Virus record (IMG/VR): IMGVR_UViG_2506381019_000003
Span: 19,119-83,118 of that record
Direction: 5' to 3' (one strand)
Length of the DNA stretch: 64,000 nt
Source of the DNA: a virus
Taxonomy: Duplodnaviria > Heunggongvirae > Uroviricota > Caudoviricetes
A model generated the notes under the pieces. The model had not been told where the DNA came from. It saw only the letters and a program-made list of their open reading frames with translations, and did not search any database. The position numbers and the translations under genes are program-made. Positions 29,399 to 56,462 of this stretch are shown one piece after another (position 1 is the first letter of the stretch; every line of letters starts with the position of its first letter).

Positions 29399-29404
29399 TG
29401 GCGC

Positions 29405-29740: not shown

Positions 29741-29776
29741 CTCCCACCCGCCTGACCTGCCCGGAGGAACCCCGCC

Positions 29777-30070: not shown

Positions 30071-30153
30071 CCCCTCACCCGGGACCGGCCGGACCCGTCA
30101 CCCGGCCGGGCCACCCACACCCCACAGCCACCCGCTACCGCGAGGAGAACCCG

Positions 30154-30372
30154 ATGCTCAACAGGTACCGCCAGTACATCCGCCAGCAGTGCGTCATCAC
30201 GCCGGCCGGCACCACGATCGTCGTCACTGACGTCGAGGAGTTGCCGACCACGCGCATCGTGACGGGGCTCCCGGTCAACACCCCGTACACCGTCGGCCGG
30301 GGCAGCGGCGCCCGCGAGATCCGGGTCGAGGTCGAGGCCGGCTACCAGTTCGCGCCCGACCTGCCTTTCTGA
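30154..30372 (+). CDS. Hypothetical protein, 72 aa.
   Basis: ORF preceded by a GAGGAG ribosome-binding site. Confidence 0.4.
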   Translation: MLNRYRQYIRQQCVITPAGTTIVVTDVEELPTTRIVTGLPVNTPYTVGRGSGAREIRVEVEAGYQFAPDLPF

Positions 30373-30445
30373 CCCGCAGCACACTCCCCGCCGTCCCGCC
30401 AGCGTGCGGGACGGCACCCCCAACCCCCTGAGAGGACCAGGAGAG

Positions 30446-30718
30446 ATGATCACGACCAACGCCGGCGAGAGCAAGGACACAATCTTTCGGGACACTCCGG
30501 CTGACAACATCAACGAGCTTTCCCTGTCGGGCGCGCGGATGACCTACCGCGAGTTCCGGAAGTCGTTCATTGACCTCGGATACAGCCCGAAGGATGCCCG
30601 CAGGAAGGCTCTGGAGGCATGCGGAGACCTTGGCGTCACGGCGGTCAACAGGGGTCAGCCGAACCGGGGATTCGCGCTGGTGATGCTCTATCAGGGTCGC
30701 GTGAAGCTACGTGGCTAG
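30446..30718 (+). CDS. Hypothetical protein, about 90 aa.
   Basis: Internal ATG 'MITTNAGESK' preceded by GGAGAG. Confidence 0.4.
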   Translation: MITTNAGESKDTIFRDTPADNINELSLSGARMTYREFRKSFIDLGYSPKDARRKALEACGDLGVTAVNRGQPNRGFALVMLYQGRVKLRG

Positions 30719-30950
30719 ATCACAGAAGCCGCCGGATGAGCTGGAACTCCTCGGCCGGTTCTCCATCGGCCTCATCTGCGCAGACGACGTCATCCGCGAC
30801 TCCGAGACCGGCCGGTACTACCAGCACATCGACAGGGATGACGACGGCGGTCGACTGCTCGCGCTGAAAGGCAAGTGGCTGGACTCCGGCGAGCCCGCGT
30901 TCCTCGTGGTCCGCAAGACGTGCCGGTTCAACATCTACATCCCGACCTGA
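30711..30950 (+). CDS. Hypothetical protein, 79 aa.
   Basis: ORF present in the ORF track. Confidence 0.35.
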   Translation: MARSQKPPDELELLGRFSIGLICADDVIRDSETGRYYQHIDRDDDGGRLLALKGKWLDSGEPAFLVVRKTCRFNIYIPT

Positions 30951-31025
30951 ACCCCTCTCAGCCCCCGGTGTCTGTGTCAGGCCCGGGGGCCCGACACACT
31001 CACCACACCCGCTGAAAGGCCAGCC

Positions 31026-31394
31026 ATGACGCGCTACCCGGCCACAAAGCCCTGTGGCACCTGCCCCTGGCGACGCTCCGCCGACCCCACCGGTGCGGCG
31101 ATCCCTGGTTACAGCCTGGAGCTGATGCGCGGGCTGGAGCGCACCGTCGGACCCGACGATGCTTTCCGCGACGTGATGGCCTGCCACGGCGACCAGATCG
31201 GCGGCGAAACCCCGTGCCGTGGCTATCTCGCCGTCGAGGGCTTCTCCAACCTCCGGGTGCGCGTGCTCGCGATGCTCGGTGACGTTCCGCTGGGCGCCGT
31301 GCGGCGGGCCTGCGTCGACATCGACATGTACCCGTCTTACGCCGAGATGCGCGCGGCACACGAGGCCGCCGCGGACAAGGAGCCCCTGAGATGA
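31026..31394 (+). CDS. Four-Cys hypothetical protein, 122 aa.
   Basis: 'CGTCPW ... CHGDQIGGETPC'. Confidence 0.4.
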   Translation: MTRYPATKPCGTCPWRRSADPTGAAIPGYSLELMRGLERTVGPDDAFRDVMACHGDQIGGETPCRGYLAVEGFSNLRVRVLAMLGDVPLGAVRRACVDIDMYPSYAEMRAAHEAAADKEPLR

Positions 31395-31648
31395 CCCTCA
31401 AGCCGGCCATGAACGAGTCGATGCGCCGCCAGGACCGGTCCGACCTGCTCGGCCTGTTCCACAACGGCCGTCGCGTGGGCGCGATGGCCGACAGCATGTC
31501 CGCCGAGGGCGTGGCCGCCGCGCGGGACCTGGCCGCCGCACAGCTCGGTGTCGAGCCGTACGCCGTCGAGGTGCTCAAGGTCTGCCCGGACCACCCGGGC
31601 GCCTCCGCGGTCGACTGCACCGCCCACGACGACGAGGAGACGGTCTGA
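31391..31648 (+). CDS. Hypothetical protein, 85 aa.
   Basis: ATGA overlap with the upstream gene. Confidence 0.4.
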   Translation: MTLKPAMNESMRRQDRSDLLGLFHNGRRVGAMADSMSAEGVAAARDLAAAQLGVEPYAVEVLKVCPDHPGASAVDCTAHDDEETV

Positions 31649-31842
31649 TGCCCCGCTACGGAGTGGTGTTCACCACCACCGCCAGCGCTCTTGTCAAGGT
31701 CGAGGCCGACAGCCCCGAAGAGGCCCGAGAGAAGGCGCCTGCCGAGCTCGACACGGGCCTGTGCCACCACTGCGCCCGTCGGATCGAGCTCGGCGACTTC
31801 GAGTACGACGAAGACGACGCCGACGCCGTGATCGAGCTGTAG
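31648..31842 (+). CDS. Hypothetical protein, 64 aa.
   Basis: Overlapping start and stop codons with its neighbour. Confidence 0.35.
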   Translation: MPRYGVVFTTTASALVKVEADSPEEAREKAPAELDTGLCHHCARRIELGDFEYDEDDADAVIEL

Positions 31843-31853
31843 GAGCTTCCGAG

Positions 31854-32051
31854 ATGACCCTGTACGGCGTGTACACGATCCCGGAGGCCGAGGTGGTCTC
31901 CAGCGGCCACCACAGCGAGGAAGACGCTGAGGCCGCCCTCCTGGACCTGGCTGCGGAGGGGCCCCGCGACGCCGCGGCGCTGATCGTCGAAGAGGAGTGT
32001 GACGACCATCCGGGCGAGCACGCGGCGTACCTCTGCCCGGACCGGTACTGA
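31854..32051 (+). CDS. Acidic hypothetical protein, about 66 aa.
   Basis: Start at 'MTLYGVY' preceded by GGAG. Confidence 0.35.
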   Translation: MTLYGVYTIPEAEVVSSGHHSEEDAEAALLDLAAEGPRDAAALIVEEECDDHPGEHAAYLCPDRY

Positions 32052-32230
32052 CCCCGTTCCTGCCTGCGAGCCCCCGCGCCCACCCCGGGCCGGGGGCACC
32101 ATACTGGACTCCGGCCTTCCGGCCAGTCTGTGACGCTGGGCCGCTGACACCAGTAGGCGGCCCCCACTGCGGAGCAGGCCCCTGCGGGGAAGCAGGGCCG
32201 GAGGGCACTGGCGCTGACCGAGGAGACGCG

Positions 32231-32518
32231 ATGCCCAGCGAACCGGACGACGCCGAACGCCTCGCCCTCCTGTGGGCCGACCGGTGGGACGTCGACCCGC
32301 ACGACGCGGGCCCACTGCCGGGCGCCCCGACCCCGGACGTCTGCGACCACATGTGGTACCCGGTCATCCGGGCCCCGCGTAGCCCGCTGGTCTGCTACCG
32401 GGGGTGCGGCGCCCGGCAGCCGGCCGGATTCGTGCCGGACGCGCAGAGTGCGGCGAGGTTGGACGCCTACGCCCCCGCACTGGACCGGGTCACGCTGGCA
32501 CGGTTCACCAGCGGCTGA
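32231..32518 (+). CDS. Hypothetical protein, 95 aa.
   Basis: ORF present in the ORF track. Confidence 0.35.
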   Translation: MPSEPDDAERLALLWADRWDVDPHDAGPLPGAPTPDVCDHMWYPVIRAPRSPLVCYRGCGARQPAGFVPDAQSAARLDAYAPALDRVTLARFTSG

Positions 32519-32662: not shown

Positions 32663-34570
32663 CTACTCGCCAGTAACAGGGTTTTGGCTACCGACCGTCA
32701 CATCCGCCGGGGCGTGCTCCACCAGATACCAGCGGCGCCGGACGTTCACCACCTGCGCGGCCCGCCCCTCCACCTCATCCCCACGGAGCGGGGCCAGGTG
32801 CTCGTACATCGTCGACGTCGCCGACCAGCCCCCCGCCCGCATCAGCTCCGACCTGGACATCCCCGCACCTGCAGCCCACGCCAGGAGCCGCCGCGCCAGG
32901 TCCGTCGATGGCACCCCCGTCGGCATCGCCGGCGCATCCGCAGCCACGGGAACCGGCCCCGCAGGCCCCTGGGCGCCCTCGTGCGCGCGCGAAGCCCCGA
33001 CCGAACGTTCGCTCTTCTCCTGCGTCCCGGTGGTGGTGTCGGGGGTTGTGGCGGTCTCGGGGGGTTCGTACTGGGCGCGGAGGGCTGCGATCTGGTCGGG
33101 TGTGGGGTTCCAGATGCGTCCTGGGCGTGGGCGGGTCTGACCGTCGAGGTAGATGAGGGCCTTCCCTGGGCGGTCGAGGGACTCCAGGGGGAAGTCGGCG
33201 AGGTTGGGGATGGCTCTGCGGATGTCGGCGGGGTTGTCCTGGATGCCGAGGAGGACGCGGGTGCGGATGTTGGTGAGGAGGCGGGTGTTGCGGATGACGT
33301 CGCGGGTGACCTTCTTGACCATCATGACCAGGGTGATGCACTCGGAGCGGGCGACGTCGGTGAGCTGGAGGACCAGGTCGAGGCACACCGGGTCGTCGAG
33401 GAGCCGTTCGACTTCGTCCATCACGTAGAGGATGTGCGGGTCGTCGTCGGTGACCTGGTGGCCGTCGAGGCCGGTGTGGGCGCCGGCGGCGGCGCGGCGG
33501 TCGACCTCGTCGAGTGCGTCGGCGAGCTGCTGGCGGGCGGCGAGGATGCCCGCGTCGAGGCCTTCCGCGTTGGTGACGGCGCGGCGGATGCAGCGGCCCC
33601 ACCGTGCGACCAGCCGGCCACCCTTGAAATCGATCGCCCACACGACGACACAGCGGCGGGCCACGGCCTGGGCGATCAGGTTGGACGCGAACACGCCCTT
33701 TCCTCCGCCGGTGCCGGCGATGACGAGGATGTGCTGGCCCAGGTGCAGCTCGATCAGCGGGCCGTCTTCGTACGGGCCGACAGGCCACGGGTCGACGGGC
33801 AGCAGGTCGGGGTCAGGGTCCGGCATGGGGATGCCGTCGTCCTGGCCCTGGGCGTCGACCTCGGGTGGGGTAAGCGGGTCGACCGCGACGACGTGCAGCA
33901 CCGCGCGGGAAGCGTCAGCGTGGACGGGTTCGACACGCAGCGCCCCGCGGCGAAGGCCGAGCTTCGCTTCGAGGTCGGGCAGGGCCGAGATCAGCTTGTC
34001 GATCCTGTGGCCGGCGAGGTCGACCCGGTGGGACCACTGTCCCTCCACCTCCCCGGGTTCGGTGGTGAGCAGCGCGACACCGGCAAGGCGCAGCTGCGCG
34101 ACCGCGTACGGCCATGCGCGCGCGAACCTGCCAGCCGCGCGGGATGCGCGTGCGCGATGGTTGCGCCACCACCACGGCCAGGCCGCCAGCGTGCCGACAG
34201 CCAGCATCCCCGAGGCCGTGCCGGTGTCCGGAGCCCAGCAGATGACCCAGACGGCCCAGGCTGCGCAGGCGTGCCCGACAGTGGCGAGTGCGCGGCGGGT
34301 GGACAGCGCGCGCGACTCGGGCGCTGGGCGCAGGCCGGCGGCGAACCACAGCACGAGCACCGCGCACACGGCGAGCACGCGCGGCAGGGTGTCGCGCAGC
34401 AGCACGGTGACGAGCGCGACGGCCAGCGCGCACCACAGCGGGGCGAGCGGGTAGCGCGTGCGGAACAGGAAACGGCGCGCGCGGCGCAGCGGACCACCCG
34501 CGCGCGTGCGCGGCTCCTGCGCGTGCGGAAGCGGCGCGACGTCCGCGCGCAAGTCGCGTGCGCGTGGCAT
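32663..34570 (-). CDS. FtsK/SpoIIIE-family DNA translocase; membrane-anchored, TraB/TraSA-like.
   Basis: N-terminal transmembrane helices. Walker A 'VIAGTGGGKGVFASN' and Walker B 'ILYVMDEVERLLDD'. The start could be further upstream; the ORF track extends to 34879. Confidence 0.7.
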   Translation of the reverse strand: MPRARDLRADVAPLPHAQEPRTRAGGPLRRARRFLFRTRYPLAPLWCALAVALVTVLLRDTLPRVLAVCAVLVLWFAAGLRPAPESRALSTRRALATVGHACAAWAVWVICWAPDTGTASGMLAVGTLAAWPWWWRNHRARASRAAGRFARAWPYAVAQLRLAGVALLTTEPGEVEGQWSHRVDLAGHRIDKLISALPDLEAKLGLRRGALRVEPVHADASRAVLHVVAVDPLTPPEVDAQGQDDGIPMPDPDPDLLPVDPWPVGPYEDGPLIELHLGQHILVIAGTGGGKGVFASNLIAQAVARRCVVVWAIDFKGGRLVARWGRCIRRAVTNAEGLDAGILAARQQLADALDEVDRRAAAGAHTGLDGHQVTDDDPHILYVMDEVERLLDDPVCLDLVLQLTDVARSECITLVMMVKKVTRDVIRNTRLLTNIRTRVLLGIQDNPADIRRAIPNLADFPLESLDRPGKALIYLDGQTRPRPGRIWNPTPDQIAALRAQYEPPETATTPDTTTGTQEKSERSVGASRAHEGAQGPAGPVPVAADAPAMPTGVPSTDLARRLLAWAAGAGMSRSELMRAGGWSATSTMYEHLAPLRGDEVEGRAAQVVNVRRRWYLVEHAPADVTVGSQNPVTGE

Positions 34571-34716
34571 GTCCGCGCGGGAGGTGTGCGCGACGGCGCG
34601 CGGACGGGTCAGCCACCCGCCCTCCGCGTGTGCCGTGCGGCGCGCACGCGGCAGCGGAGGATCCGCGCGCGGCTGTGGTTCGCGGTCGCGCGCGCCAGGG
34701 CCGAACCAGGGGCCGC

Positions 34717-35490
34717 TCACCGGCGCGCACCCGCGGCTGGCTGGGGCAGGGCGAAGTCTGGTCGCACACGCAGGCCCGTCTCGGCTGCGCCGATGTGCGG
34801 GTCGTACACCAGGTCGGCCTTCTTCGCGGCCTTGGCGATGAGCTCGGGCGCGAAGGACAGGCCGTCGAGGGCCTCCCACAGGGGGCCCATCGCCTCCATG
34901 TCGATCTGCGCGTCGCCGTCGAGGGTGTCAAGCCAGGCGCCGAGGCCTTCGCGCACGTGCGCGAAGGCGACCGCGACCGCGTGGATCTGCGCGGGCAGCC
35001 CGGGGAGTCCTTCCTCGGGGAGCGGCATGCCGGCGAGGCCGTCACCGGACTGGGCGAGGCGTAGCGCCTCCATGTGACCTCCAAACGCTGCGGTGCTCAG
35101 GGTGCGCGCGCCGACCTGCGCGCTGGGCGGGATGGTGCGCGCGGGTGCGGGCCGCGCGGCAGAGGCGTGCGCGCGCGGCGGCTTGCGCGGGTCCGCGCGC
35201 GCGGCGGCGGGTGGCGCCGGGGTCGCGCGCTCAGCGGGCCAGAGCACGCCGCGCAGCACGCCGACCGTGGCGGTGCGCGCCTGCCTGCGACGGTCCTCGC
35301 GCGTGGCCGTCCGCCACGCGCGCGCACCGGTACGCGCGCGTGACGCTCCCGCGCGCGCGGCTGCGCGGCTCGCCGGAAGACGGGAACGCCCCGCTGCGCG
35401 TCGCGCGCCGCGGGGCGTGTCCGGGTCGTTCGCCAGTCCCGCCAGCAGCCCGAGCAACAGCAGGAAACCGGCGACGGTGGCAAGGCTCAT
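34717..35490 (-). CDS. Membrane-anchored hypothetical protein. N-terminal TM 'LATVAGFLLLLGLLAGL', an Arg/Ala-rich linker and a C-terminal domain.
   Basis: ORF with an ATGA-type overlap with the upstream stop codon. The linker is low-complexity. Confidence 0.35.
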   Translation of the reverse strand: MSLATVAGFLLLLGLLAGLANDPDTPRGARRAAGRSRLPASRAAARAGASRARTGARAWRTATREDRRRQARTATVGVLRGVLWPAERATPAPPAAARADPRKPPRAHASAARPAPARTIPPSAQVGARTLSTAAFGGHMEALRLAQSGDGLAGMPLPEEGLPGLPAQIHAVAVAFAHVREGLGAWLDTLDGDAQIDMEAMGPLWEALDGLSFAPELIAKAAKKADLVYDPHIGAAETGLRVRPDFALPQPAAGARR

Positions 35491-36814: not shown

Positions 36815-37168
36815 TTAGAGCGACGCCGCGCCCCGCTGGGCCTTGTTGTAGGCCTCGACGACGTCCTTGGACATCCTGCCCCGGTCGCTGACCTGGTAGC
36901 CGTTGGCTCGGGCCCAGTTGCGAATCCGGGTGATGTGCTCGTCGGCCCTGCGGGAAATCCCGCTGGCGGCAGGCTTGCCGTTGGCGGGCTTGCTGGTGGC
37001 GCGCCGGGCCTTCGAGACGAACGGGGCCAGCGCCTCGCGGAGCTTGGCGGCGTTCGCCGCGGTGACATCGATCTCGTACTGGGCGCCGTCCAGGCCGAAC
37101 CGGACGGTTTCGTCGGCCGCCTCGCCGGTGATGTCGTCGATCAGCGAGATGACGGTCTTCTGGGCCAC
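36815..37168 (-). CDS. lsr2: Lsr2-family nucleoid-associated protein.
   Basis: 'VAQKTVISLIDDITGEAADETVRFGLDGAQYEIDVTAANAAKLREALAPFVSKARR...' with a C-terminal DNA-binding region. GTG start with a GGAGGA ribosome-binding site. Confidence 0.8.
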   Translation of the reverse strand: MAQKTVISLIDDITGEAADETVRFGLDGAQYEIDVTAANAAKLREALAPFVSKARRATSKPANGKPAASGISRRADEHITRIRNWARANGYQVSDRGRMSKDVVEAYNKAQRGAASL

Positions 37169-37224
37169 GGGTCCTCCGGGGATTGTCGGGCCGGCTCCTG
37201 GCCGGGTGAGCGACACCGTACACC

Positions 37225-37256
37225 GCAATTCGTGAAAGGTACTAATAACGAATTGC
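37225..37256. promoter_or_regulatory. 32-bp palindrome GCAATTCGTGAAAGGTACTAATAACGAATTGC in the lsr2 promoter region. It contains the recurring ATTCGTG-N4-GTACT motif.
   Basis: Visible in the sequence, about 60 bp upstream of the lsr2 start. Confidence 0.5.
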
Positions 37257-37645
37257 ACCGCCACTCCCCCGCCCGGATGCGGGTGACGGTGGGTGATGTC
37301 CGCCGGATGTCCGGGCGGACATCCGAAGCGCTGGTAGCTCGCGTGCGCCTGCGCGATAGGCGGGTGGACGTCCGGATGTCCGGAGTCGGACATGGTGACC
37401 GTAAGTGATCGTCGGGAGGGGTTCGACGCGAGCGCAGATCGCAACGATCAGTGGGAGCGGGGCGTTCGGAAATAGCGCTGACGCTCGATTCCAGGGTGGC
37501 GGCCCGGCCCCCGCCAGAGCGGGCCGCCACGAAGAACGGTACGGCCGGCGGGGCGGGGACAGTGTGGTCTCACAGCCGCCTGTGGATAACGTGAAGCGGG
37601 CCCCTACCCGGTGTGGGTAGAGGCCCGCTTCGGCGTTTCCGGGGG

Positions 37646-38602
37646 CTACCGGGTGACGGCGAACTCCGCGCCGGCGCCCGGCCAGCAGGAGAACCCGGCG
37701 GGGAGCTGCTGGCCCTTGTCGACCGCGGCGCGGAGCAGGGTCATGCACTGGGAAACCAGGACGTTCGGGTCCTGCGACACGGAGGCCGAGAGCGTTTCGT
37801 TCGCCTTCGCCTCGGCCGCCGCGGTGGCCTCCCGCTGGGTGGCGATGCGGGTCTGGGCGACCTCACCCTGAAGGGCGTTGATGCGGTCCTGCGTCGTCTT
37901 GTCGAACGCGACGTGGGAGATCACGACAGACTGGACCTCGACTGGGGCACCGACCCGGGCGGAGAGGGCCTTGGTGACCTGCTTGGACAGGTTGTCGTAG
38001 CTGGGGACCGCGTCGCCGCCGAGCGGGTTGTAGGTGCTGAACACGTCGTTCATGGCGGCGCGGAGATCCCTCGTCACCAGGCTGGCACGGACGTTGTCGA
38101 AGCCGCGGTAGTCGACGAACAGGTCGTCGGCGCTGCCGGGGTTGATCCTCCAGCGGGCGGAGGCGGACACGTAGGCCGTGGACTGGCTCGCGGTGCGGAC
38201 GACGATCTCGTTGCCCTCCCGGTCGCTGCCAGACGGCTCCGGGGCGTAGCTGTCAGTCTGGATCGCAGCGTCGAACGGGGTGACCTTCTGCCACGGCAGC
38301 TTGCCGTGGAGACCGTTGGAGAGCACGGTGCCGGTCGGTCGACCGAACGAGGTGACGATGCCGACCTTCTTCGTGCTCACCGACGTGACCGAGGACAGGA
38401 CGGTGAACAGGACGGCGAGGCCTGCGAAGAGGACAGCGACGCCGAGGGCGGCGCGGGCACCCTCGCGGCGGAGGGTCTGCAGGTCGGTGTCAGTGGTGCT
38501 GGCCGCAGCCTTCCGGGTCAGGATGCTGGCGGTGAGGGGCAGGAGGGTGAGCACGGCGAAGACGATCGCCGTGACGAACAGCTTGGGCAACGATGCTCCC
38601 AT
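37646..38602 (-). CDS. SPFH/Band-7 (prohibitin/HflC-like) membrane protein.
   Basis: N-terminal transmembrane segment, then an SPFH-like core ('KKVGIVTSFGRPTGTVLSNGLHGKLPWQKVTPFDAAIQTDSY ... VAFDKTTQDRINALQGE') and a coiled-coil tail. Confidence 0.6.
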   Translation of the reverse strand: MGASLPKLFVTAIVFAVLTLLPLTASILTRKAAASTTDTDLQTLRREGARAALGVAVLFAGLAVLFTVLSSVTSVSTKKVGIVTSFGRPTGTVLSNGLHGKLPWQKVTPFDAAIQTDSYAPEPSGSDREGNEIVVRTASQSTAYVSASARWRINPGSADDLFVDYRGFDNVRASLVTRDLRAAMNDVFSTYNPLGGDAVPSYDNLSKQVTKALSARVGAPVEVQSVVISHVAFDKTTQDRINALQGEVAQTRIATQREATAAAEAKANETLSASVSQDPNVLVSQCMTLLRAAVDKGQQLPAGFSCWPGAGAEFAVTR

Positions 38603-38619
38603 TGAATCGAACGTGTGTT

Positions 38620-39030
38620 CTACTTGCGGGTTGTGACTCTCCTGCTGGACGGCGAGCTCCGTCTTTCGCTCGCCCGGTCCGCCCCGCCGGCCGTGGTGCT
38701 GCGGCGGGTAGCGGAGCTGATGGGCCGCTGCGAGGCGGTCTGGGTGGACCTCGCGGACGGCAGCCGTGGGCTGGTCGTCTGGGGTCGGGTCAAGACGTGT
38801 GAGGTCCTGCCGTGACGGCGGTCGTCTTCGTCGTCGATCCCGTTCCGCGGGTTCACGTCGGGCTCGCACTCCCACCCGTCGTCGTCCCACTCGGCGACCT
38901 GGCCGGCCAGGCACAGCGGCGGGGCCGGACGGGGAGACGGACGAGACGGGGTGGAGCCGCACCCTGCCGCCGCAACCACCAGGGCCACGGCAGCAGCAGA
39001 GGTCAGCCGTAGGTGGTAGCGAGCACCCAT
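38620..39030 (-). CDS. Putative lipoprotein.
   Basis: Signal peptide with lipobox 'LVVAAAGCGS'. Confidence 0.45.
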   Translation of the reverse strand: MGARYHLRLTSAAAVALVVAAAGCGSTPSRPSPRPAPPLCLAGQVAEWDDDGWECEPDVNPRNGIDDEDDRRHGRTSHVLTRPQTTSPRLPSARSTQTASQRPISSATRRSTTAGGADRASERRSSPSSRRVTTRK

Positions 39031-42390: not shown

Positions 42391-42712
42391 GGGGCCAGCA
42401 CGTCGAGCGTGAGCACCTCGGCGTCGGGCCCGAGCCGGCCGGCGGCTTCCCGCGCGGCCGGCTCCTGCAGGTGCGCGCCGCCGAACGGGCGGATCCCGTT
42501 CGTGTCGGGCGCACCGACGGCGAGGAACACCCGGGTGGGCGGGGGCTGGTCGTCGGTGAAGGCGGTCTCGGCGTCTTCCAGGGCCCGGCGGGCCTGGGCG
42601 ATGTGGCGTCGGGCGGACTCCGGCCGGCCAGTCTGGGCGCAGGCACGCGCATGGCTGGCGTGGGCGGTGGCGGCGACTAGCAGGTCGACTGCAGCGGTAC
42701 TGGCCACGGGCT
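42372..42712 (-). CDS. Hypothetical protein, about 110 aa. The 5' part of the ORF-track ORF is junk.
   Basis: Only the C-terminal part is protein-like. Confidence 0.25.
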
Positions 42713-43950
42713 CACACCTCCTGGTCTGTGCGGAACGGGAGGGAGTGCTCGGGGCGCAGGGAGCGCCAGAGCGCGGGCAGGGAGGAGTAGCCGTCGAGCT
42801 CGCGGAGGACCGCGCCGCGTACCAGCGGGGTGAGGCTCTGCAGGGAGGCGAAGAACTGCTTCCGGTCATCGCGGAGGCGGTCGCGGGCGCCGAACTCGAT
42901 CTGCACGGTGTCGTGGAGGCTGGCGAGATCGGCTTCCAGGCCGTTGCGGACGCCGCGGGCCCAGTCGTCGAACTCGTCCGGGACCTGCGCGAGGAGCTCC
43001 GCGAACGGGCCGCCTTCGACAGCGCGGAGGCGGGTGATGTCGGCGGCCGGGCAGCCCAGGGTCTGGGCGAGTTCTTTGTCGGTGAGCGTCGCGGCGAAAA
43101 GCTCGACGCCGGTGTATCGCCAGACGTCGCGGGCGCTGGTTCCCGTAAGGGCCCTATGCAACCGGACATAATCGGCCATCTTGATCTTTACGCGAGTACC
43201 GGAGGCGAACCGAACGACGTAACCTTCTTCCTCCGTTCCGGAGACGGTCCGGCCTCGGTGCGTGCGGCTCTCGGTCGCCAACGCAGCGATTTCCCCGAGC
43301 GGGGGCAGGTCGACGTCGCGCCAGTGGGATGCGGACAGACCCCACGGCCAGCGGGTGGCGGTGTCCTCGTAGTCGAGTTCGGCGCCGTCGGACTGGATGG
43401 CTGCGAGGAATGTGAGCCCTTCTCCGTCGAGCCCGTAGTCGACGACGATCCTGTTCTCGGCGTAGATCATCTCGGCGAGATAGGTGACCTCGGGATTCAG
43501 GTCAGCTGTGTTCGCGAGGTCGAGCTGCCGTTGAGCCCAGAGCGCCTGTTCGCTGGCGAACGATCCCTTAGAAGCGGCGTGCCACTTCCCATCGAAGTGA
43601 AAGATGATTGCGAGTGAGCCATCTATTTTGCCGAACAGCTCGAATGGCTCGTGTAGCGGGAGCGGCGGCGCGTACGGCCTCCCCGCTAGGTGCTCCCCGT
43701 AGTTGAAGAACTTCTCGAAGGGCCGGGCGATGACACGGCCGCTGGCGCGGTGGACGACCAGGCCGCGGCACCGTGTGGTGATCGCGTCCCACTCGGCCTT
43801 GTACTGGCAGGTCCGGGTGTAGGTGAGGATGTCGAGCGGCAGGTCGGGGTGGGGCTTGCGGGTGACCAGCCCGGCCGTGATGTGCCGGTCGAGCTGGTCG
43901 AGGTCGAACAGGTCGTAGATGTGGACCGGCGCGGGGGCGGTGGTGGTCAT
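42712..43950 (-). CDS. ATP-dependent RNA ligase, nucleotidyltransferase superfamily.
   Basis: Motif I 'ELFGKIDGSLAII' (KxDG lysine). 412 aa. Adjacent to the pnkp gene. Confidence 0.6.
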   Translation of the reverse strand: MTTTAPAPVHIYDLFDLDQLDRHITAGLVTRKPHPDLPLDILTYTRTCQYKAEWDAITTRCRGLVVHRASGRVIARPFEKFFNYGEHLAGRPYAPPLPLHEPFELFGKIDGSLAIIFHFDGKWHAASKGSFASEQALWAQRQLDLANTADLNPEVTYLAEMIYAENRIVVDYGLDGEGLTFLAAIQSDGAELDYEDTATRWPWGLSASHWRDVDLPPLGEIAALATESRTHRGRTVSGTEEEGYVVRFASGTRVKIKMADYVRLHRALTGTSARDVWRYTGVELFAATLTDKELAQTLGCPAADITRLRAVEGGPFAELLAQVPDEFDDWARGVRNGLEADLASLHDTVQIEFGARDRLRDDRKQFFASLQSLTPLVRGAVLRELDGYSSLPALWRSLRPEHSLPFRTDQEV

Positions 43951-44894
43951 CAGAAATTGCCTTCTGCGACTTGGAAAACGGTCAGGCCGATCTGGCGCCA
44001 GCCCGCAACAACGGAAGCCCGGTCGTCGAAAACCCCGGTAACCCGGTAGTTGTGGCGGATCTCCCGATCGAAGATCTCCATCTTCACGATGAGGTCTTTG
44101 CGGGAGTCGCCAATGGCGCGCATGAACAGGCCCTCGTGCGGGCGGCGGACGTAGGAGGAGAGCCAGGCGTGGGTGTCCGCGCGGCAGCCGGCGGAGCGGC
44201 CGGACAGGTAGATGATGCGGTGGCCGGCGGACTGCATTGCCTTGACGGCGATGATGACCGGCCAGTTCGGCAGGTCCTCAGAGACGCGGTTTTCGTCGTA
44301 CGGGTCGCGTCCGTTGTGGAGGCACAGGGTGCCGTCCAGGTCGACCAGAATGGCGTCCGGCTTGCCCTCGGGCAGGGTGTAGGGCAGGAACACCGGCGTG
44401 GGATGGATCTTGGGGAGTTCGAGGGGCAGCTTCTTCCCTGCCAGGAAACGGCGGTGCTGGTTGCGGATCGCCTGCTCGCCCACCCGGGCGCCCGTGACCG
44501 CGCCGGGCATGGGCTCCGGGCGGAGCGTGTCACGGCGGACGCACAGCTCCACGTCGACGTCGGTCAGGTCGAGTACGGAGAACAGGGCGCCGGCCCGGAG
44601 CGCGGTCTCCATCCAGTGACGTACGTACTGGGCGGCCAGGTTCATCTCGTCGACGATCACGTTCACGCCGGCGCGGAGCAGGGTGTTGACCTGGGCGTCG
44701 CGGACGGCGGTCACGTGCTTCTCGCCTGCGGTGTCGCCGTAGGTGAGGCCGAGCTGGTCGCGGAGCGGGTCGCGGCTCACCACCACGGCGCGGTGGCCGG
44801 CGGCGCGGAGCTGGTCACGGCGGCGGCGGGCCGCGGTGCTCTTCCCGGAGCCGGGCAGGCCGCGGGTGATGGTCAGGGTGGGACGGTCGGTCAC
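43950..44894 (-). CDS. pnkp: Polynucleotide kinase-phosphatase: P-loop kinase domain plus HAD-type 3'-phosphatase domain.
   Basis: 'TITRGLPGSGKST' Walker A and 'AILVDLDGTLCLH' DxDGT motif. GTGA-overlap start. Confidence 0.7.
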   Translation of the reverse strand: MTDRPTLTITRGLPGSGKSTAARRRRDQLRAAGHRAVVVSRDPLRDQLGLTYGDTAGEKHVTAVRDAQVNTLLRAGVNVIVDEMNLAAQYVRHWMETALRAGALFSVLDLTDVDVELCVRRDTLRPEPMPGAVTGARVGEQAIRNQHRRFLAGKKLPLELPKIHPTPVFLPYTLPEGKPDAILVDLDGTLCLHNGRDPYDENRVSEDLPNWPVIIAVKAMQSAGHRIIYLSGRSAGCRADTHAWLSSYVRRPHEGLFMRAIGDSRKDLIVKMEIFDREIRHNYRVTGVFDDRASVVAGWRQIGLTVFQVAEGNF

Positions 44895-45826
44895 AGCCTC
44901 CGCTCCCTGATCGGCCCGCCGGCCTGCGGTTCGACGTAGCCGGTGCCCGCGCAGTGCCCGCACGGCGTCTCGGCTACGGCCTCCGCAACATCGGCACACA
45001 CCTCCGCGGTGAATTCCTCCAACGTCGCGAGAGCGGCAACGACGTTCTCCCCGCGGATCTCACGCCCGAGATGGACGGTGAAGTACAACGTTCGCCGGTC
45101 GGGCTTGTTCTCGAAGCGGGGTCGACGTGCCCGGGGCCCGGACACGTCCACCCGGATCGTTCGTCCCGGCTGGTAGGCCCGGCGGACCGTGAGGTTGAAC
45201 TCGTGCGGGTTGCTGTGATCCCACCAGTCGATATCCGCAGTTGGAACCGCGCGCCGGACAGCGTCTACCAATCCCCGCTGATAGCCGGTCAGCTTGCCGG
45301 GGAACAGCCGGCCATATTCCGGCCAGTTACCCAGCACGTAGGGAAGATCCGGTGTCCAACTGCAGCCGGAAGGAAGAACCGGGAGGTCTCCATCCAGGAG
45401 GATGGCGTCGGAGATCTCCAGGGTGACAATGTCGCCGGGAACATCCTCACGGATCGTCCGGTACAGGAGCCCGAAGGTCTCCCAATCCTGATCCAGCCTT
45501 TTCCTGCCCTCCTCCACGGTGAGGGTGAGCGGGTACTTCGCCGACTCGGTTTCCGGGTCCTCAAGCTGGTAACCGGTCACGCGGGTGCTACCAGGAAGGT
45601 GTGCGTGGAGCGGGCCCGCTGTGCCGGTGGGGACGATCCACCAGTTCTCGACCGGCAGCGCCTGAAGGCGTGTTCCGTCGGCGGTGGTCCATCGGTCGAT
45701 GGAGGTCCAACTTCCCTGGGGCTTCGCGGGGACGTCGGCACCGCGGTCGTTAAGGCCCTCCGTGGTGCTGGGCAGATGGTAGGCGGTGCGCCCATCGGGC
45801 AGCCGGATGGCGAAGCGGTCAGGCAT
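44891..45826 (-). CDS. Hypothetical protein, 311 aa.
   Basis: ORF present in the ORF track. Confidence 0.4.
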   Translation of the reverse strand: MPDRFAIRLPDGRTAYHLPSTTEGLNDRGADVPAKPQGSWTSIDRWTTADGTRLQALPVENWWIVPTGTAGPLHAHLPGSTRVTGYQLEDPETESAKYPLTLTVEEGRKRLDQDWETFGLLYRTIREDVPGDIVTLEISDAILLDGDLPVLPSGCSWTPDLPYVLGNWPEYGRLFPGKLTGYQRGLVDAVRRAVPTADIDWWDHSNPHEFNLTVRRAYQPGRTIRVDVSGPRARRPRFENKPDRRTLYFTVHLGREIRGENVVAALATLEEFTAEVCADVAEAVAETPCGHCAGTGYVEPQAGGPIRERRL

Positions 45827-48998: not shown

Positions 48999-49276
48999 CC
49001 GGCACCACCCGTCTGACCGGGGACGGCGGCCTCCAGCTCGGCGATGCGGGCCGCGGCGGCACGCTCGTGCGCTACAAGGAGCCGCACGTCGACAGCGGCC
49101 ATGAACAGCTCGCCGGCCGTGACATCCTGGTTGAGCTGGGCGGCGGTCTTGACTTGGTGCTCAGCGAGGCGTGCGCGGACAGCGGCGACGGTTTGCAGGT
49201 CTCGGTACCGGCCAGATGCGGAGGCGAGGGTGTGCGGTCCGGGGGTGACAGCGCCGACGTCGATCGTGAAGGTCAC
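48995..49276 (-). CDS. Hypothetical protein, 93 aa.
   Basis: ORF present in the ORF track. Confidence 0.35.
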   Translation of the reverse strand: MTFTIDVGAVTPGPHTLASASGRYRDLQTVAAVRARLAEHQVKTAAQLNQDVTAGELFMAAVDVRLLVAHERAAAARIAELEAAVPGQTGGAG

Positions 49277-49992
49277 CGGCCTACCGCCCGTCGCCCGGAT
49301 CCGCCGACACGGCGACTACCGAGGTCCGCGCGGGCACCGGCAGCGGAACCGGCGCGCCAGCCGGAGCCGGAGTAGCTGTGCCGAAGCGTCACCGTCTTCG
49401 GGTAGGCGGTGGTGTACGCCGCCTTGACCAGGGTGGAGCGGTCCGCGAGCACGAGCGCGACGCTCGTGCCGGCGGGGGCGATGTCCTCTGCCTGCTGCTG
49501 CGCCGACCTTTCGGTCGCCTTCAGCCGCGCGACGATCTCGGAGCGGAAGCCGTTCATCCAGCTCCGCCGGTACGCGCGGACGTTCTCCCGCGGGTTGACG
49601 GGCCGGGCGGTGGCCAGGCCGTGTGCCTGCTGGACGAGAAGCGACGTGAACAGCAGCTCGGCGCGTTCGACGTCCTCCGCCATCCCGAAGACGTGGACGC
49701 TGAAGCGGCCTTTGCTGCCGGGGATAAGGATCCCCTTGCAGCGCAGCGCCTCGGCCACTCCGTAGAGGAGTCGGGCTTTCTCTTTCGCGTATGGCGCTTC
49801 GCAGGCGACCATGCGGTCGATCGGCTTGGACTCGACTGGGGCGTGTGCGGCGAGGAGCGCCTGGTCGATGCCGTACTGGGCGATCAGCTCGGCGGCCTTC
49901 GCGTTGTACGACTCCCGGGCGGCGTCGGTGAGGTCTTCGGCCTCCGCCATCGCCAGCAGCTTGCGAACCTTCTCCAGCTTGTCGACGGCCAT
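49273..49992 (-). CDS. DUF2786-like protein.
   Basis: N-terminal 'MAVDKLEKVRKLLAMAEAEDLTDAARESYNAKAAELIAQYGI'. Confidence 0.4.
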   Translation of the reverse strand: MAVDKLEKVRKLLAMAEAEDLTDAARESYNAKAAELIAQYGIDQALLAAHAPVESKPIDRMVACEAPYAKEKARLLYGVAEALRCKGILIPGSKGRFSVHVFGMAEDVERAELLFTSLLVQQAHGLATARPVNPRENVRAYRRSWMNGFRSEIVARLKATERSAQQQAEDIAPAGTSVALVLADRSTLVKAAYTTAYPKTVTLRHSYSGSGWRAGSAAGARADLGSRRVGGSGRRAVGR

Positions 49993-50432
49993 CAGGCGGC
50001 AATCAGCTCGGGCGCCGGGGTTGGGGCGATGGCGGCGGCGAACTCGTCGACGGTCACGGTCGTCGCGATCCTGATCTCCGTCCGGGCGAGGATCGACCGG
50101 ACGGAGATGTGCACCTTGACGTCGTTGATCACGTGGAAGCGGACTTCAGTGTCCGGACGGATCGCGGCGAGCGCGGTCGTCACGCGGAGGTCGGCGTCCC
50201 CAGCCGGGCGGAAGCAGATCTCCGCCTCCGCGCCGATGTAGTCGGCATACTGGGCGGAACGTGGGGTGAAGGTCACGTCATCGACCGGGCCGATTTCCGC
50301 CACTACGGCTGCGGCGACCTTGGCCATGCGGTCGAGAAGCTCACCGCTGATGATCTCCATGTACGCTGCTCCTGTCTGTGGGGCCGTCGTCCGTGATCTC
50401 TGCCAGGGGATCGGGTGGCGGCCCTTCGTCAT
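49992..50432 (-). CDS. Hypothetical protein, 146 aa.
   Basis: ORF present in the ORF track. Confidence 0.4.
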   Translation of the reverse strand: MTKGRHPIPWQRSRTTAPQTGAAYMEIISGELLDRMAKVAAAVVAEIGPVDDVTFTPRSAQYADYIGAEAEICFRPAGDADLRVTTALAAIRPDTEVRFHVINDVKVHISVRSILARTEIRIATTVTVDEFAAAIAPTPAPELIAA

Positions 50433-50827
50433 GTCCGGGCTGTGGCCCCACAGTAGTCCTGAAAAGTACTAATCGCAAATCGTGAGACACAAGATTTGCC
50501 CACCAGGCGGCGGGTCCGGTCAGGACCCGCCAGCCAGCAGGACCGCCTCCCGGCACCGCGGGCACGGCCTCAACGCCCCGGCTGGCAGCGGGTTCCCCCG
50601 CGGGCTCAACGCCCCCGGCGGAGCGGGCGCCATCCCTCTGTCGCAGGCAGGAGCCTCGGGAAACAGGGGATCGGGGGCGAGATGAGTACAGGTGCAGCCC
50701 TTCGTCCCGCAATGCCCTTCACGCTCGAAGTCCTCCCGGGTCCGCCGGGCAGGTGCTGCTGCGACCATCTCAAACCCCCAATCCCTTGACTTTACTAATC
50801 AAGAATAGTACTGAAGTGTGGGCACGG

Positions 50828-51187
50828 CTAGACGCTGGTCGGGTTCTCGCGGCGCCACGCTTCGGCGCAGATTTCAACCAGGGCCCGACGCTGCGGGGAG
50901 GTGTTCAACGCCCCGCCCCACTGCCGGGGAGGCACGTAGCCGTTCCACAGTGCCGGAGAGGTGAAGCTGAGCGGGCCCGCAGTGAGCTTCTCGGCCAGGT
51001 CCGGATGACGGGAAACCAGGGCGGCGGCGCGGGCTTTCGCCTCCAGTCCCTGAGTCCACATCGCTGCCTGCCGTTCCGTTTCGGACGGGATCGCGATGCC
51101 TGCTTCGCGGCGCTCCCGATAGTCGGCGAGGTCGGTCGGCGACGTCATCAGGACCCCGCCGCCTCGTAGCCGTTCTGCGCGGCCCAC
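50828..51187 (-). CDS. Hypothetical protein, 119 aa.
   Basis: ORF present in the ORF track. Confidence 0.4.
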   Translation of the reverse strand: MGRAERLRGGGVLMTSPTDLADYRERREAGIAIPSETERQAAMWTQGLEAKARAAALVSRHPDLAEKLTAGPLSFTSPALWNGYVPPRQWGGALNTSPQRRALVEICAEAWRRENPTSV

Positions 51188-51888
51188 GCGCGAAGCGCGT
51201 CGGCGGCCTGCGTTTTCTGGATGTCGGTTGCCGGGCCGTAGTCAGCGCGGGCGGGGATCGTCCGGCCGAACCCGGATCGGCGGATCTGCACTTTCACGGC
51301 TTCGGCCCGCGGCCGGTCGGCATGTACGGCGGCCTGGGCCTCACGTTCGGCGGCTTCCACACCCGAACCTCCTTCGAGGGCCTTCGGTGTCCGCTTGGCC
51401 GCTTCGAGCGCGGCCAGCGGGGTCATAAGCGCGGCCTCAGTCTCCCGGACGGACACGGGCGTGTAGGCGTCAACGAAGCGTCGGTGGGCGTAGCCGTCCC
51501 GCCCGTCAATCGCCTCCCAGCCGATCCCGTTCTCGTGTGGCGACATCGTCTTGTACACAGCGGGATGGATCGAGGGCTCCGGACCGGTGCGCCGGTTCAG
51601 CCAGCGGTTCATCTCCCGGGCTTGCGCGTAGGCGGCTTCGGTGTCGGGTGGGAGGAGTCCGCGGGCCGCGATGACGCGGCGGCGGATGTCCCCAACCTCG
51701 ATCCAGGGGCCGCCGATCACAAAATGGGCCCGGACGGCCTGCGCGGCGTCGATGAAGGGGACGTCGGCCAGCAGGTCATGCCAGGCATCGCCGGTGCCCG
51801 GGGTGTCGTCGGTGCTGGGGACGATAGTGAACTTCGGCGACAAAGCGCGGATCAAGTGGAGCAGCTTCGAGACTTCAGCGCGGGTCAT
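51148..51888 (-). CDS. Hypothetical replication-module protein, 246 aa, immediately downstream of the rep gene.
   Basis: Assigned from its position next to the iteron-containing initiator. Confidence 0.4.
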   Translation of the reverse strand: MTRAEVSKLLHLIRALSPKFTIVPSTDDTPGTGDAWHDLLADVPFIDAAQAVRAHFVIGGPWIEVGDIRRRVIAARGLLPPDTEAAYAQAREMNRWLNRRTGPEPSIHPAVYKTMSPHENGIGWEAIDGRDGYAHRRFVDAYTPVSVRETEAALMTPLAALEAAKRTPKALEGGSGVEAAEREAQAAVHADRPRAEAVKVQIRRSGFGRTIPARADYGPATDIQKTQAADALRAWAAQNGYEAAGS

Positions 51889-52889
51889 CCTGTCCCCTCG
51901 TTCACAACCTGGCCGTCGATGACCTCGTGGTTGGCGCTGCCGAAGAAGCCGCCGCTGGCGAATGGGTCACGGATAGCGGATCCGGCCGCGATGGCGGCTT
52001 CTTGCGCGAATGCTTCATCGGAGCGGGCGCGGCGGTTCATGGGCAGGACGTTCCCGGCCTCGGATTCGGCTATGGCCTGCTGGACGAACGTGGGAAGCAT
52101 TCCCGGCCCGCAGCGGGCCCGGTTGCGCCACAGGAGCCGCAGGCCGTCCAAGATCTGCTCCTTGGTGAAGCCGTCGTCGAGCAGCTCGTCCGTGATCGTC
52201 AGCAGCTTCGACCGGTCGCGGCGTGGCAGCGGATGCGAGAGTGCGCCGGCGTACTGGTCGATGAGCTCGTCGGCGACTCCCGTAAGCACGGCGGCTCGGG
52301 TGTCGCCGGAGCGTGCCTCCCGTTGCTTCGACGCCCGCATGTCGGTCGGGCCGCCCTCGCGCGCCTGCGCGCGGGTCGTGCCCTTGGTTGGTGGTTGGTA
52401 GGTCTCTTGGTCTAGTACTTGGTCTTCCTTATAGGGCATTGAGCCAACTTCCGGTTGAGACTGTTGGATCTTCCGGTTGAGACCGGTCGATCTTCCGGTT
52501 GAGACCTCGTGATCTTCCGGTTGAGCCCGGTCGTTCTTCTGGTTGAGGTCCGCATCCGCGGCCGGCGGATCGGCATCGACCGGCACTGAAACGGGGACCA
52601 GCGCCGCGTACGTGCTCGCCGCGACCGTCCCGTCTCCGCGCCGGTGGCCGCGGGCTGTGCGGGTGAGGTAGCCGTTTTCCTGAGCCCATGCCAGGTGGCC
52701 CGAGACCGCCCGGGTACTGATCCCGACGGCGGCGGCAATCGTCGACTCCAACACCCGCGCGTTGGACCCGTCAGAGTCCATGTAGGTGCCAAGGGTGAGC
52801 AGGACAGAGAGGCGGTACTTCACAACGTCCGGGTCGGAGCGGAGTCGGATTCCCCAGACCCGGGTGGAAACACGGCCGGACTCGCTCAC
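51885..52889 (-). CDS. Replication initiator protein (winged-helix N-terminus). The iteron origin is embedded in the gene.
   Basis: HTH 'VLESTIAAAVGISTRAVSGHLAWAQENGYLTR'. The peptide repeats 'STGxxxLNRKI' are encoded by the five 22-bp DNA iterons. Confidence 0.55.
   Translation of the reverse strand: MSESGRVSTRVWGIRLRSDPDVVKYRLSVLLTLGTYMDSDGSNARVLESTIAAAVGISTRAVSGHLAWAQENGYLTRTARGHRRGDGTVAASTYAALVPVSVPVDADPPAADADLNQKNDRAQPEDHEVSTGRSTGLNRKIQQSQPEVGSMPYKEDQVLDQETYQPPTKGTTRAQAREGGPTDMRASKQREARSGDTRAAVLTGVADELIDQYAGALSHPLPRRDRSKLLTITDELLDDGFTKEQILDGLRLLWRNRARCGPGMLPTFVQQAIAESEAGNVLPMNRRARSDEAFAQEAAIAAGSAIRDPFASGGFFGSANHEVIDGQVVNEGTG
52447..52550. repeat. Iteron array: five tandem 22-bp repeats with core CTTCCGGTTGAGAC. 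Candidate replication origin.
   Basis: Direct repeats with 21-22 bp periodicity are visible in the sequence. Confidence 0.7.
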
Positions 52890-55779: not shown

Positions 55780-55977
55780 TCACCGCCCTGGCCCCTGCGG
55801 GTCGGGGAGCAGGCCCTGAGCGCGCGCCATCGCCCGGTAGCGGACAACAGCCCTGGTGGACACACCCAATTCGTCGGCGATCTGACCCGCGGTCCGGTGG
55901 GCACGGGTGAGCTCGGCGGCTACCCGTATCCGCCGCACGACGGACACCGAGTCGGTGTCCACGCTGCAGGCGCTCAC
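55780..55977 (-). CDS. Small HTH protein, 65 aa.
   Basis: 'AGQIADELGVSTRAVVRYRAMARAQG'. Confidence 0.45.
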   Translation of the reverse strand: MSACSVDTDSVSVVRRIRVAAELTRAHRTAGQIADELGVSTRAVVRYRAMARAQGLLPDPQGPGR

Positions 55978-56462
55978 ATCCTCTCCTCGGAGGCCGGGTG
56001 GATGCCGCCCTGGTCGTCGAGGAGAACCCGGGCACCCCGGTAGAGCACCGGGGCCGCGGCCGGGTCGTCGCCGCGGTGGACCTGCCAGCCGTTGTCGTAC
56101 CGGTCGGACGCTCCGTCAGCCAGCGCGTGACATCCGGCGGAGGCGTCCGGGCCGCACACGGCGAGCAGGTTGGACAGCCGGTGTGTGCCCGGGTCGCTGG
56201 TACCTCCGGTGCCACGCCGGGCCCGGTGCTGGATCGACCGCCAGCCGGGCCGGAGCGGCTCGCCGCCAATCTCGCACCGGCCGTCGGCGCGCTCATACAC
56301 GGCGGCCCGGGTCTCTGCGGGCAGCCGGTTCGCCGGCGTCTTCGCGCACGTACGGGACGCGGCGCGCGGCTGGTTCGTACGGGGCGACCCGCCGCGGGCA
56401 AGTCCGGTCCGCCGCTGTGGTCCCGAGCCGCGCGGGAGCGGGGTATGACGATGGAGAGTCAA
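55974..56462 (-). CDS. HNH endonuclease.
   Basis: 'AVYERADGRCEIGGEPL ... IQHRARRG ... NLLAVCGPDASAGCHALA' is an HNH motif. The true start is probably internal. Confidence 0.6.
   Translation of the reverse strand: MTLHRHTPLPRGSGPQRRTGLARGGSPRTNQPRAASRTCAKTPANRLPAETRAAVYERADGRCEIGGEPLRPGWRSIQHRARRGTGGTSDPGTHRLSNLLAVCGPDASAGCHALADGASDRYDNGWQVHRGDDPAAAPVLYRGARVLLDDQGGIHPASEERM

Follow-up and report, generated by a model that had tools for sequence, protein, structure and literature searches.

Known origins inside initiator genes and a candidate in a Parafrankia prophage

In phage lambda the replication origin lies inside the initiator gene, where four 18-base-pair (bp) iterons at nucleotides (nt) 349-433 of gene O, spaced 20, 24 and 23 bp, are followed by a 38-bp AT-rich tract (PMC7466680, PMC3349717). 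Gene O starts at 38686, the iterons at 39034, 39054, 39078 and 39101, and gene P follows. The iteron copies closest to the AT-rich tract matter most (PMC7466680). In phage SPP1, oriL consists of direct repeats together with an unwinding element, rich in AT, inside gene 38 (PMC6316719); loader gene 39 overlaps the end of this origin-binder gene by 4 bp, and helicase gene 40 comes next. Here we analysed a 64,000-nt stretch of DNA (positions 19,119 to 83,118 of IMG/VR record IMGVR_UViG_2506381019_000003, hereafter the window), which holds a prophage of Parafrankia sp. EUN1f, a nitrogen-fixing actinobacterium. Within a gene for a putative replication initiator (Rep), it carries five iterons next to a stretch of low guanine-cytosine (GC) content. 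We consider it probable that the iterons and this tract together form the vegetative (theta-type) replication origin of the prophage, bound by its own Rep. The elements of the locus, all on the minus strand, are as follows.

51885-52889, minus: initiator (Rep) gene, an open reading frame (ORF) of 334 amino acids (aa) with an N-terminal winged helix, a disordered linker whose coding part holds the candidate origin DNA, and a helical C-terminal domain
52593-52880, minus: region coding for the winged helix (residues 4-99, AlphaFold2), the presumed iteron reader
52448-52549, minus: five iterons, plus-strand sequence CTTCCGGTTGAGAC, gene-strand sequence (G)TCTCAACCGGAAGA(TC)
52380-52447, minus: candidate DNA-unwinding element, a low-GC stretch that in gene sense adjoins the iterons on their 3' side
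52404-52435, minus: conserved 32-nt block within the low-GC stretch, gene-strand sequence CCTATAAGGAAGACCAAGTACTAGACCAAGAG, with GACCAAG twice, 12 nt apart
51903-51968, minus: Rep C-terminal tail motif DPFASGGFFGSANHEVIDGQVV, candidate docking site for the downstream loader-like protein
51148-51888, minus: helicase-loader-like gene of 246 aa, with a 4-bp overlap at the rep stop

Comparison with lambda, SPP1 and iteron plasmids

By analogy, the locus appears to fit a known kind, with the origin inside the initiator gene and with an initiator and a helicase loader. The candidate origin is of an ordinary kind, and the protein family is undescribed; a literature search for the motif and for actinophage origins returned no prior description in the library covered. 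The original prediction likened the repeats to lambda O-type origins, and the layout agrees point by point, as a likeness of organisation. In both phages the origin, here a candidate, sits in the middle of the initiator gene, with iterons (here nt 341-442, five at 22 bp) and then an AT-rich tract, the iteron spacing is not a multiple of 3, and a helicase-loader gene, here a predicted one, lies directly downstream of the initiator gene, as P follows O. The copies nearest the AT-rich tract, which matter most in lambda, are the best conserved here. Furthermore, as in lambda, a scan of early-region ORFs (those at 56540-58666 lay outside it) revealed no phage helicase, and host DnaB would be used. 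The differences are that there are five iterons rather than four, that the background is 70% GC and the tract only relatively AT-rich, and that the lambda iterons are internally palindromic (ATCCCTCAAAACGAGGGA; TCCCTC...GAGGGA), being inverted repeats bound by an O dimer, whereas the window iterons are not; the symmetry of TCTCAACCGGAAGA is limited to its CCGG centre and outer TCT/AGA, and some relatives pair two cores in inverted orientation. On sequence comparison, a lambda-like origin appears well supported. The label 'O-like' of the matching PHROG family (phrog_391) is a family name and not a tested homology to O.

The likeness to SPP1 concerns repeats and an unwinding element inside the origin-binder gene, a loader gene with exactly the same 4-bp overlap, and a predicted G39P-fold loader encoded next to the origin binder. 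Unlike in SPP1, no G40P-like DnaB helicase gene follows the loader among the scanned ORFs, the window showed no further copy of the origin comparable to oriR, and the loader-like protein is twice as long (246 versus 126 aa), with extra helical parts. With iteron plasmids of the pPS10 RepA, R6K pi and RK2 TrfA class, the locus shares direct initiator sites approximately 22 bp apart beside an unwinding element. The phased repeats beside an unwinding element that characterise an iteron-type origin were found here as five copies at 22 bp adjoining the least stable 80-bp tract. The direct and inverted half-sites of relatives also recall how plasmid Reps such as pPS10 RepA bind iterons as monomers and operators as dimers. 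By contrast, the Rep protein here has a single winged helix instead of the tandem WH1-WH2 of Rep_3, its origin would lie inside the gene, no DnaA boxes occur near the array, and the element is an integrating prophage.

Five iterons with a period of exactly 22 bp

Tandem Repeats Finder, a check proposed with the original prediction, reported 4.5 copies of a 22-bp unit at 52448-52547 with a score of 135 (149 when the unit is taken as 44 bp), and a repeat finder placed the plus-strand starts of the five copies at 52448, 52470, 52492, 52514 and 52536, with a start-to-start spacing of exactly 22 bp. The predicted five 22-bp iterons at 52447-52550 are thus borne out, at 52448-52549, as is their embedding in the rep gene: the array lies inside the 334-aa ORF 51885-52889 (minus strand). 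Two details of the prediction are corrected. The period, given as 21-22 bp, is exactly 22 bp in the window array, and the repeats do not lie in frame and encode a repeated peptide. Because 22 is not divisible by 3, the frame shifts by one base per copy (1, 2, 0, 1, 2) and the five copies are translated as LNQK, AQPED, VSTGR, LNRK and SQPEV, the peptide recurring only once per 66 bp (22 aa), and loosely.

The 14-mer CTTCCGGTTGAGAC is exact in copies 1-3, with one mismatch in copy 4 and three in copy 5, and the three exact copies are those closest to the low-GC stretch. Its 12-mer core CTCAACCGGAAG occurs five times in the window at ≤1 mismatch, all in the array, against 0.26 expected, and none of 100 shuffles reached five; relaxing the array motif to ≤3 mismatches gave nothing above chance elsewhere in the window. 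The spacers between identical cores are not alike (TGTTGGAT, CGGTCGAT and CTCGTGAT), which argues against a young duplication. As read from the sequence, none of the three frames of the forward core contains a stop codon and one frame of the reverse core has TGA, in keeping with the orientation of the array relative to the gene. The core, stop-free in three frames with a TGA in one frame of its reverse complement, may have been shaped by its coding location.

Conservation of repeats at the DNA level

Relatives were collected by a word-based protein search, which found few, and then through their contigs, by a DNA-pattern scan and by a search via the downstream gene. Cores of the form CTCAACCGG (9 bp) occur at the same gene position in L001, L002, L003, L040, L008 and L130, arranged directly or inverted. 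The array of L001 consists of four CTCAACCGGAAGAT cores spaced 22 bp apart, with an inverted pair immediately upstream, and L001 shares the low-GC sequence; in L002, inverted pairs accompany direct cores at 22-bp spacing, and L003 carries CTCAACCGGCCA as inverted pairs and direct copies. In L040 (Nocardioides) and L008/L106 (an 84-kb viral contig), all from the DNA-pattern scan, a homologous winged helix is followed by three to four cores. The search via the downstream gene added L130, in which there are five to six cores and GC falls to a minimum of 0.40. In L006, L131 and L132, where the N-terminal domain is divergent, this place in the gene holds repeats of other sequence (GGAATAGCCGGCAA three times, ACCCCTGACGTCCACG six times, and another set), those of L131 having a 24-bp period and an in-frame repeated peptide, TPDVHV. 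Repeats are therefore present in homologues, and their sequence changes with the DNA-binding domain. Absence of repeats from homologues had been named as an outcome that would count against the original prediction; instead, seven independent homologous genes carry arrays at the same gene place (L001, L002, L003, L040, L008, L130 and, with a different motif, L006). The winged-helix domains of the relatives are only 45-66% identical to that of the window (alignment A2), and that of L006 is approximately 30% identical. Several relatives adjoin integrase and excisionase-type genes.

We then aligned the window gene with those of L130 and L001 and counted invariant columns.

Iteron cores: 53/54 columns
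Spacers: 5/24 columns
32-nt low-GC block 52404-52435: 29/32 columns
Winged-helix coding region: 137/258 columns (53%)
Third-codon positions, cores and block: 26/29
Third-codon positions, winged-helix region: 31/86 (Fisher p = 3e-7 against cores and block)

The best-conserved nucleotides of the gene thus lie in the part that codes for the disordered linker, a pattern indicating that selection in the linker acts on the DNA and not on the protein.

Peptide-pattern scans of viral and genome contigs gave no confirmed relative loci. A DNA-pattern scan of genomes for CTCAACCGG-N13-CTCAACCGG gave at least 119 loci, with a homologous winged helix only at L040 and L008/L106. The DNA pattern was rejected as a marker of origins by itself, long arrays elsewhere being intergenic between housekeeping genes. 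Near-perfect 22-bp arrays with the core CTCAACCGG and other flanks occur in L020, L024, L092 and L121 (uncultured Actinomycetota) and in L049 and L094 (Spirochaetes), and arrays of the same kind in L052 (Pirellula), L025 (Polyangia), L089 (Gordonia asplenii), L093, L124, L050 and L063. They have 4-8 copies, with a 31-bp period in L093, and the nine with scanned flanks lie between genes for GlmS, citrate synthase, TetR, GNAT, a DEAD helicase and a solute-binding protein, with no Rep homologue. Since the search pattern forced both core and period, the core shared by these intergenic arrays may be an effect of ascertainment.

The low-GC tract next to the iterons

The candidate unwinding element lies at gene nt ~443-510, where GC falls to 0.44-0.50 from approximately 0.70 around it. 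By nearest-neighbour energies, no 80-bp duplex in the window is less stable than 52393-52473 (z 4.0), and among 60- and 40-bp windows the tract comes in at rank 4-5. Low-GC minima after the repeats are also found in L001, L130, L131 and L132. The peptide trace of the conserved 32-nt block, YKEDQVLDQE, is also present in P0006, and KEDQVLLQE in P0008; the block may be a specific loading site and not just easily melted DNA. The single-stranded fold of the candidate origin DNA was not unusual (z -1.27), no DnaA-box-like sites were found within 300 bp of the array, and a sigma-70 promoter scan found none; one terminator-like match was within chance.

The other top low-stability segments of the window fall between ORFs supported by third-position GC and appear to be intergenic, and these regions hold no multi-copy repeat arrays. 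One such region, 50433-51147 (approximately 0.7 kb past the loader gene), contains no ORF with third-position GC support and holds two of the least stable segments of the window, together with a word TACTAATC...T repeated 326 bp apart; no Rfam match and no iteron copies were found in it.

Rep protein and its downstream loader-like partner

AlphaFold2 predicted residues 4-99 of Rep with confidence (predicted local distance difference test (pLDDT) 80-93), in an H-H-E-H-H-E-E topology. Residues 100-196 (pLDDT ~30) have no predicted structure and are predicted to be disordered, and the C-terminal part (residues 191-301) is helical with low confidence. The iterons and the tract that follows fall wholly within the coding part of the unstructured segment, between the winged helix and the C-terminal helices. 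The full 334-aa reading is backed by N-terminal homology to P0003, P0004 and P0005, and the C-terminal 233 aa are 100% identical to an NCBI 'hypothetical protein' of Parafrankia sp. EUN1f. This public annotation (P0001, 233 aa) begins at residue 102 and leaves out the whole winged-helix domain.

Foldseek matched the N-terminal domain to the winged helices of MarR, ArsR, CodY, DnaD-N and TubR, which are winged-helix DNA binders in general, and the fold alone therefore does not identify an initiator. Rep matched phrog_391 ('replication initiation O-like') and two families labelled 'replication initiation protein', phrog_270 and phrog_27344. Neither Rep nor its relatives matched Phage_rep_O (Pfam) or Rep_3, there was no NCBIfam match, and a sequence search against solved structures returned only generic helix-turn-helix (HTH) matches for Rep and none for the loader. 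Among relatives, phrog_270 matched 50/58, phrog_391 48/58 and Pfam HTH_36 48/58 (best 3.7e-14). Because relatives match these profiles while the window Rep matches them weakly or not at all, its putative membership in the HTH_36/PHROG initiators would be by transitive homology.

The gene downstream of rep probably encodes a G39P- or lambda-P-like helicase loader beside the origin binder, to judge from its modelled fold. The AlphaFold2 model is confident (pLDDT 83), with a predicted G39P/lambda-P-like fold, and in hhalign the loader family aligned end-to-end with G39P residues 1-74 (E 0.0018, weak sequence support). Foldseek with this model gave nothing significant, and hhalign of the loader family against lambda P gave no alignment. 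Homologues of the loader gene always follow a Rep-like gene with the same overlap, and Reps with other C-termini have other downstream genes. Furthermore, all five Reps that precede this loader family (window, L006, L130, L131 and L132) have an FF..VIDG[EQ]-type tail, kept in L131 and L132 despite otherwise different N- and C-terminal parts; in the wider winged-helix family it is rare, with 3 of 152 representatives carrying it. The tail may be the docking site for the loader-like protein. Past the loader lie the ORFs 49992-50432, 49273-49992 (with DUF2786/DUF7168) and others, with no helicase family among them.

A proposed route of initiation and points that weigh against it

After induction, the early leftward operon would express Rep, whose N-terminal winged helix would bind the five CTCAACCGG-core iterons in an O-some-like complex. 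As the iterons are 22 bp apart, approximately two helical turns, we propose that all sites face the same side of the DNA. The complex would destabilise the adjacent low-GC stretch 52380-52447, and the C-terminal part of Rep, probably through its FF..VIDGQ tail, would recruit the downstream loader. The loader would then place the replicative helicase, presumably host DnaB, on the melted DNA; recruitment of the host enzyme is assumed because no phage helicase was found. We infer Rep-iteron binding, unwinding, the Rep-loader and loader-DnaB contacts and origin activity.

A number of observations count against the locus being an origin fired by Rep. Rep binding and origin firing are deduced by comparison, and profile alignment detects no shared ancestry with the initiators compared: a 58-member family profile gave a probability of 0.2% (E 0.26) against lambda O and 0.3% (E 0.24) against G38P in hhalign, with no detectable homology to either. 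The resemblance to lambda is therefore one of organisation rather than of demonstrated descent. The winged-helix fold is generic, the PHROG matches of the window Rep are weak (E 1.7e-5 for phrog_391, 3e-4 for phrog_270), and it has no Pfam match even at E ≤5, falling below the HTH_36 threshold. In its recognition helix it has Ser where 94% of the relatives with a core imprint have Arg. The 'low-GC' tract is still 44-50% GC, and other segments of low stability lie nearby in intergenic DNA (50457-50497, 50779-50819 and 56464-56504). The same 9-nt core also forms long 22-bp arrays in intergenic DNA elsewhere, unrelated to this locus, and the DNA pattern alone is thus not diagnostic. Neither a phage helicase nor a primase was found among the scanned early-region ORFs. 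Finally, GC skew, which had been suggested as a test of the origin, was uninformative and was set aside as evidence: cumulative skew peaks at 53078, but with a polarity that does not fit an origin, and the best change-point lies near 50.3 kb (p ~0.04).

Alternative explanations

The alternative that survives best, and which we nevertheless hold to be unlikely, is that the repeats are Rep-binding control sites (for autoregulating the early operon, for controlling copy number by handcuffing or for incompatibility towards related elements) and that unwinding and helicase loading take place at another site, such as the low-GC stretch between genes at 50.4-51.1 kb, past the loader gene. Both in plasmids and in lambda, iterons take part in inhibition as well as in initiation, and lambda ITN3-4 together with oop transcription silence replication in trans (PMC3349717). 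The inverted core pairs in L001, L002 and L003 look like dimer or operator sites, with 22 inverted pairs inferred family-wide, and the tract beside the iterons is matched in instability by the segments 50457-50497 and 50779-50819. However, the 50.4-51.1 kb region is without multi-copy repeats or iteron copies, whereas a low-GC tract abuts the iterons in the window, L001, L130, L131 and L132, and the near-invariance of the 32-nt block (29 of 32 nt) is as expected of a coupled iteron-unwinding unit. Control and initiation are, moreover, compatible roles.

It is far less probable that the repeats serve the protein, as a peptide module repeated along a flexible linker, and have no role as DNA. Such a module would account for repeats in a coding region and for the in-frame TPDVHV produced by the 24-bp period of L131, but a 22-bp period rotates the frame and successive copies encode different peptides. 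Conservation at the nucleotide level includes third positions, spacers drift, the family spacings of 22, 33 and 44 nt are not multiples of 3, and the segment is predicted to be disordered. Equally improbable is a centromere-like partition site or pac site bound by the winged-helix protein. The fold search did return TubR (3m8f) and pNOB8 AspA (4rs8 and 5k5q) among many, and phased direct repeats are typical of such sites; yet no ParA/TubZ-type partner gene is adjacent, the neighbour encoding a helicase-loader-like protein instead, the family matches PHROG replication-initiator families, and the gene lies in the early region of an integrating prophage with an integrase, approximately 34 kb from the large terminase gene at 17264-18595. 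Recent neutral tandem duplication by replication slippage, to which the identity of three copies over 14 nt might point, is the least credible explanation, as the spacers between identical cores differ and the arrays keep their position and core in relatives with winged helices only 45-66% (L006 ~30%) identical to that of the window.

Imprint of the core across the winged-helix family

A winged-helix profile of the family matched 3220 cluster representatives at E ≤1e-3, a number that falls to 244 at E ≤1e-10; most are 180-400 aa long. Since the core is translated, it leaves peptide imprints, namely LNR, xQP and STG in the three frames and PVE from the reverse complement. We counted them in 147 family representatives, comparing the 90 aa after the domain with the rest of the proteins, per 1000 aa.

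LNR: 4.05 versus 0.07
STG: 9.16 versus 0.29
xQP: 11.7 versus 1.8
PVE (reverse core): 2.8 versus 0.37

The three-frame imprint is thus enriched up to approximately 58-fold in the linker, and 62 of the 147 proteins have at least three forward imprints. Among 214 inferred core spacings, 22 nt was found 71 times, 21 nt 26 times, 33-34 nt 35 times and 44 nt 5 times. To judge from these translated traces, spacings in the family follow multiples of the helical turn and not of the codon. In a comparison confounded by phylogeny, members that carry the core imprint differ most clearly from those lacking it at columns of the predicted recognition helix (residues 59-67), and the window Rep is atypical at the top-ranked column; this concentration of specificity-associated columns is an indirect hint that Rep binds the iterons. 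A broader proposition, which we find tempting but would lean slightly against, is that one 9-bp core, CTCAACCGG, with approximately two-turn phasing, is common to the winged-helix initiators, a large family of divergent proteins, that serve prophages and integrative elements of actinobacteria, each with the origin in its own linker-coding part.

Prophage context

The rep gene sits within a long leftward gene train, with the integrase at the right end of the window. Other features are listed below.

62504 to the window end, plus: tyrosine integrase
59108-60247, leftward gene train: AAA_24 protein
55974-56462, leftward gene train: HNH endonuclease
55780-55977, leftward gene train: HTH protein
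42712-44999, left of rep: polynucleotide kinase and T4 Rnl-like RNA ligase
36815-37444, 32663-34879 and 37646-38962: Lsr2-like nucleoid protein, FtsK/SpoIIIE-like protein and SPFH/band-7 protein, in this order
25903-27495, left of rep: TROVE/Ro-like RNA-binding protein
17264-18595: large terminase
12585-14300: portal
Terminase/portal side of the window: minor head protein

Nucleotide and protein searches of a phage collection with the region, Rep and the loader returned no relative, and neither Rfam families nor transfer RNAs were detected in the window. The polynucleotide kinase, RNA ligase and TROVE/Ro-like protein make up an RNA-repair set encoded by the prophage; no Y-RNA or other Rfam family turned up around the Ro-like gene, even with a permissive threshold. 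In L006 (229-852) and L132 (103-636), rep has an HNH endonuclease gene directly upstream, and in the window such a gene lies approximately 3 kb upstream. Small plus-strand ORFs at 29384-32518 break the leftward train and could be a moron or accessory cassette. A 33-bp tandem repeat at 16847-16999 (4.6 copies, 96% identity, Tandem Repeats Finder score 285) lies in the ORF 16811-17218 (minus strand), which is directly downstream of the large terminase gene in the sense of leftward transcription and has no PHROG match. As 33 is a multiple of 3, this repeat is an in-frame 11-aa protein repeat. Furthermore, an exact, partly palindromic 14-mer, CGATACATGAATCG, occurs at 60950-60963 and again 85 bp away at 61035-61048, in a low-GC intergenic region that separates the early operon from the integrase-side genes; the pair may be operator sites of the immunity region.

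Implications for the prophage and the initiator family

If the iterons and the low-GC tract are the origin of the prophage, two genes listed as hypothetical in the public record gain a function, the initiator being present there only in its truncated 233-aa version. The rep gene with its embedded origin, together with the loader gene, is likely to be the minimal replicon, approximately 1.75 kb at 51148-52889. Genetic tools for Frankia are scarce, and a native replicon module could therefore be useful for vectors. A core shared across the family, if true, predicts cross-recognition of origins, as incompatibility or parasitism, among co-resident elements. The three-frame imprint with 22-nt spacing just after an HTH_36-type domain is a signature readable from protein sequence and could flag in-gene origins in actinobacterial mobile elements. 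The locus would also be a clean example of selection at the DNA level hidden in what appears, from the protein, to be a 'disordered linker'.

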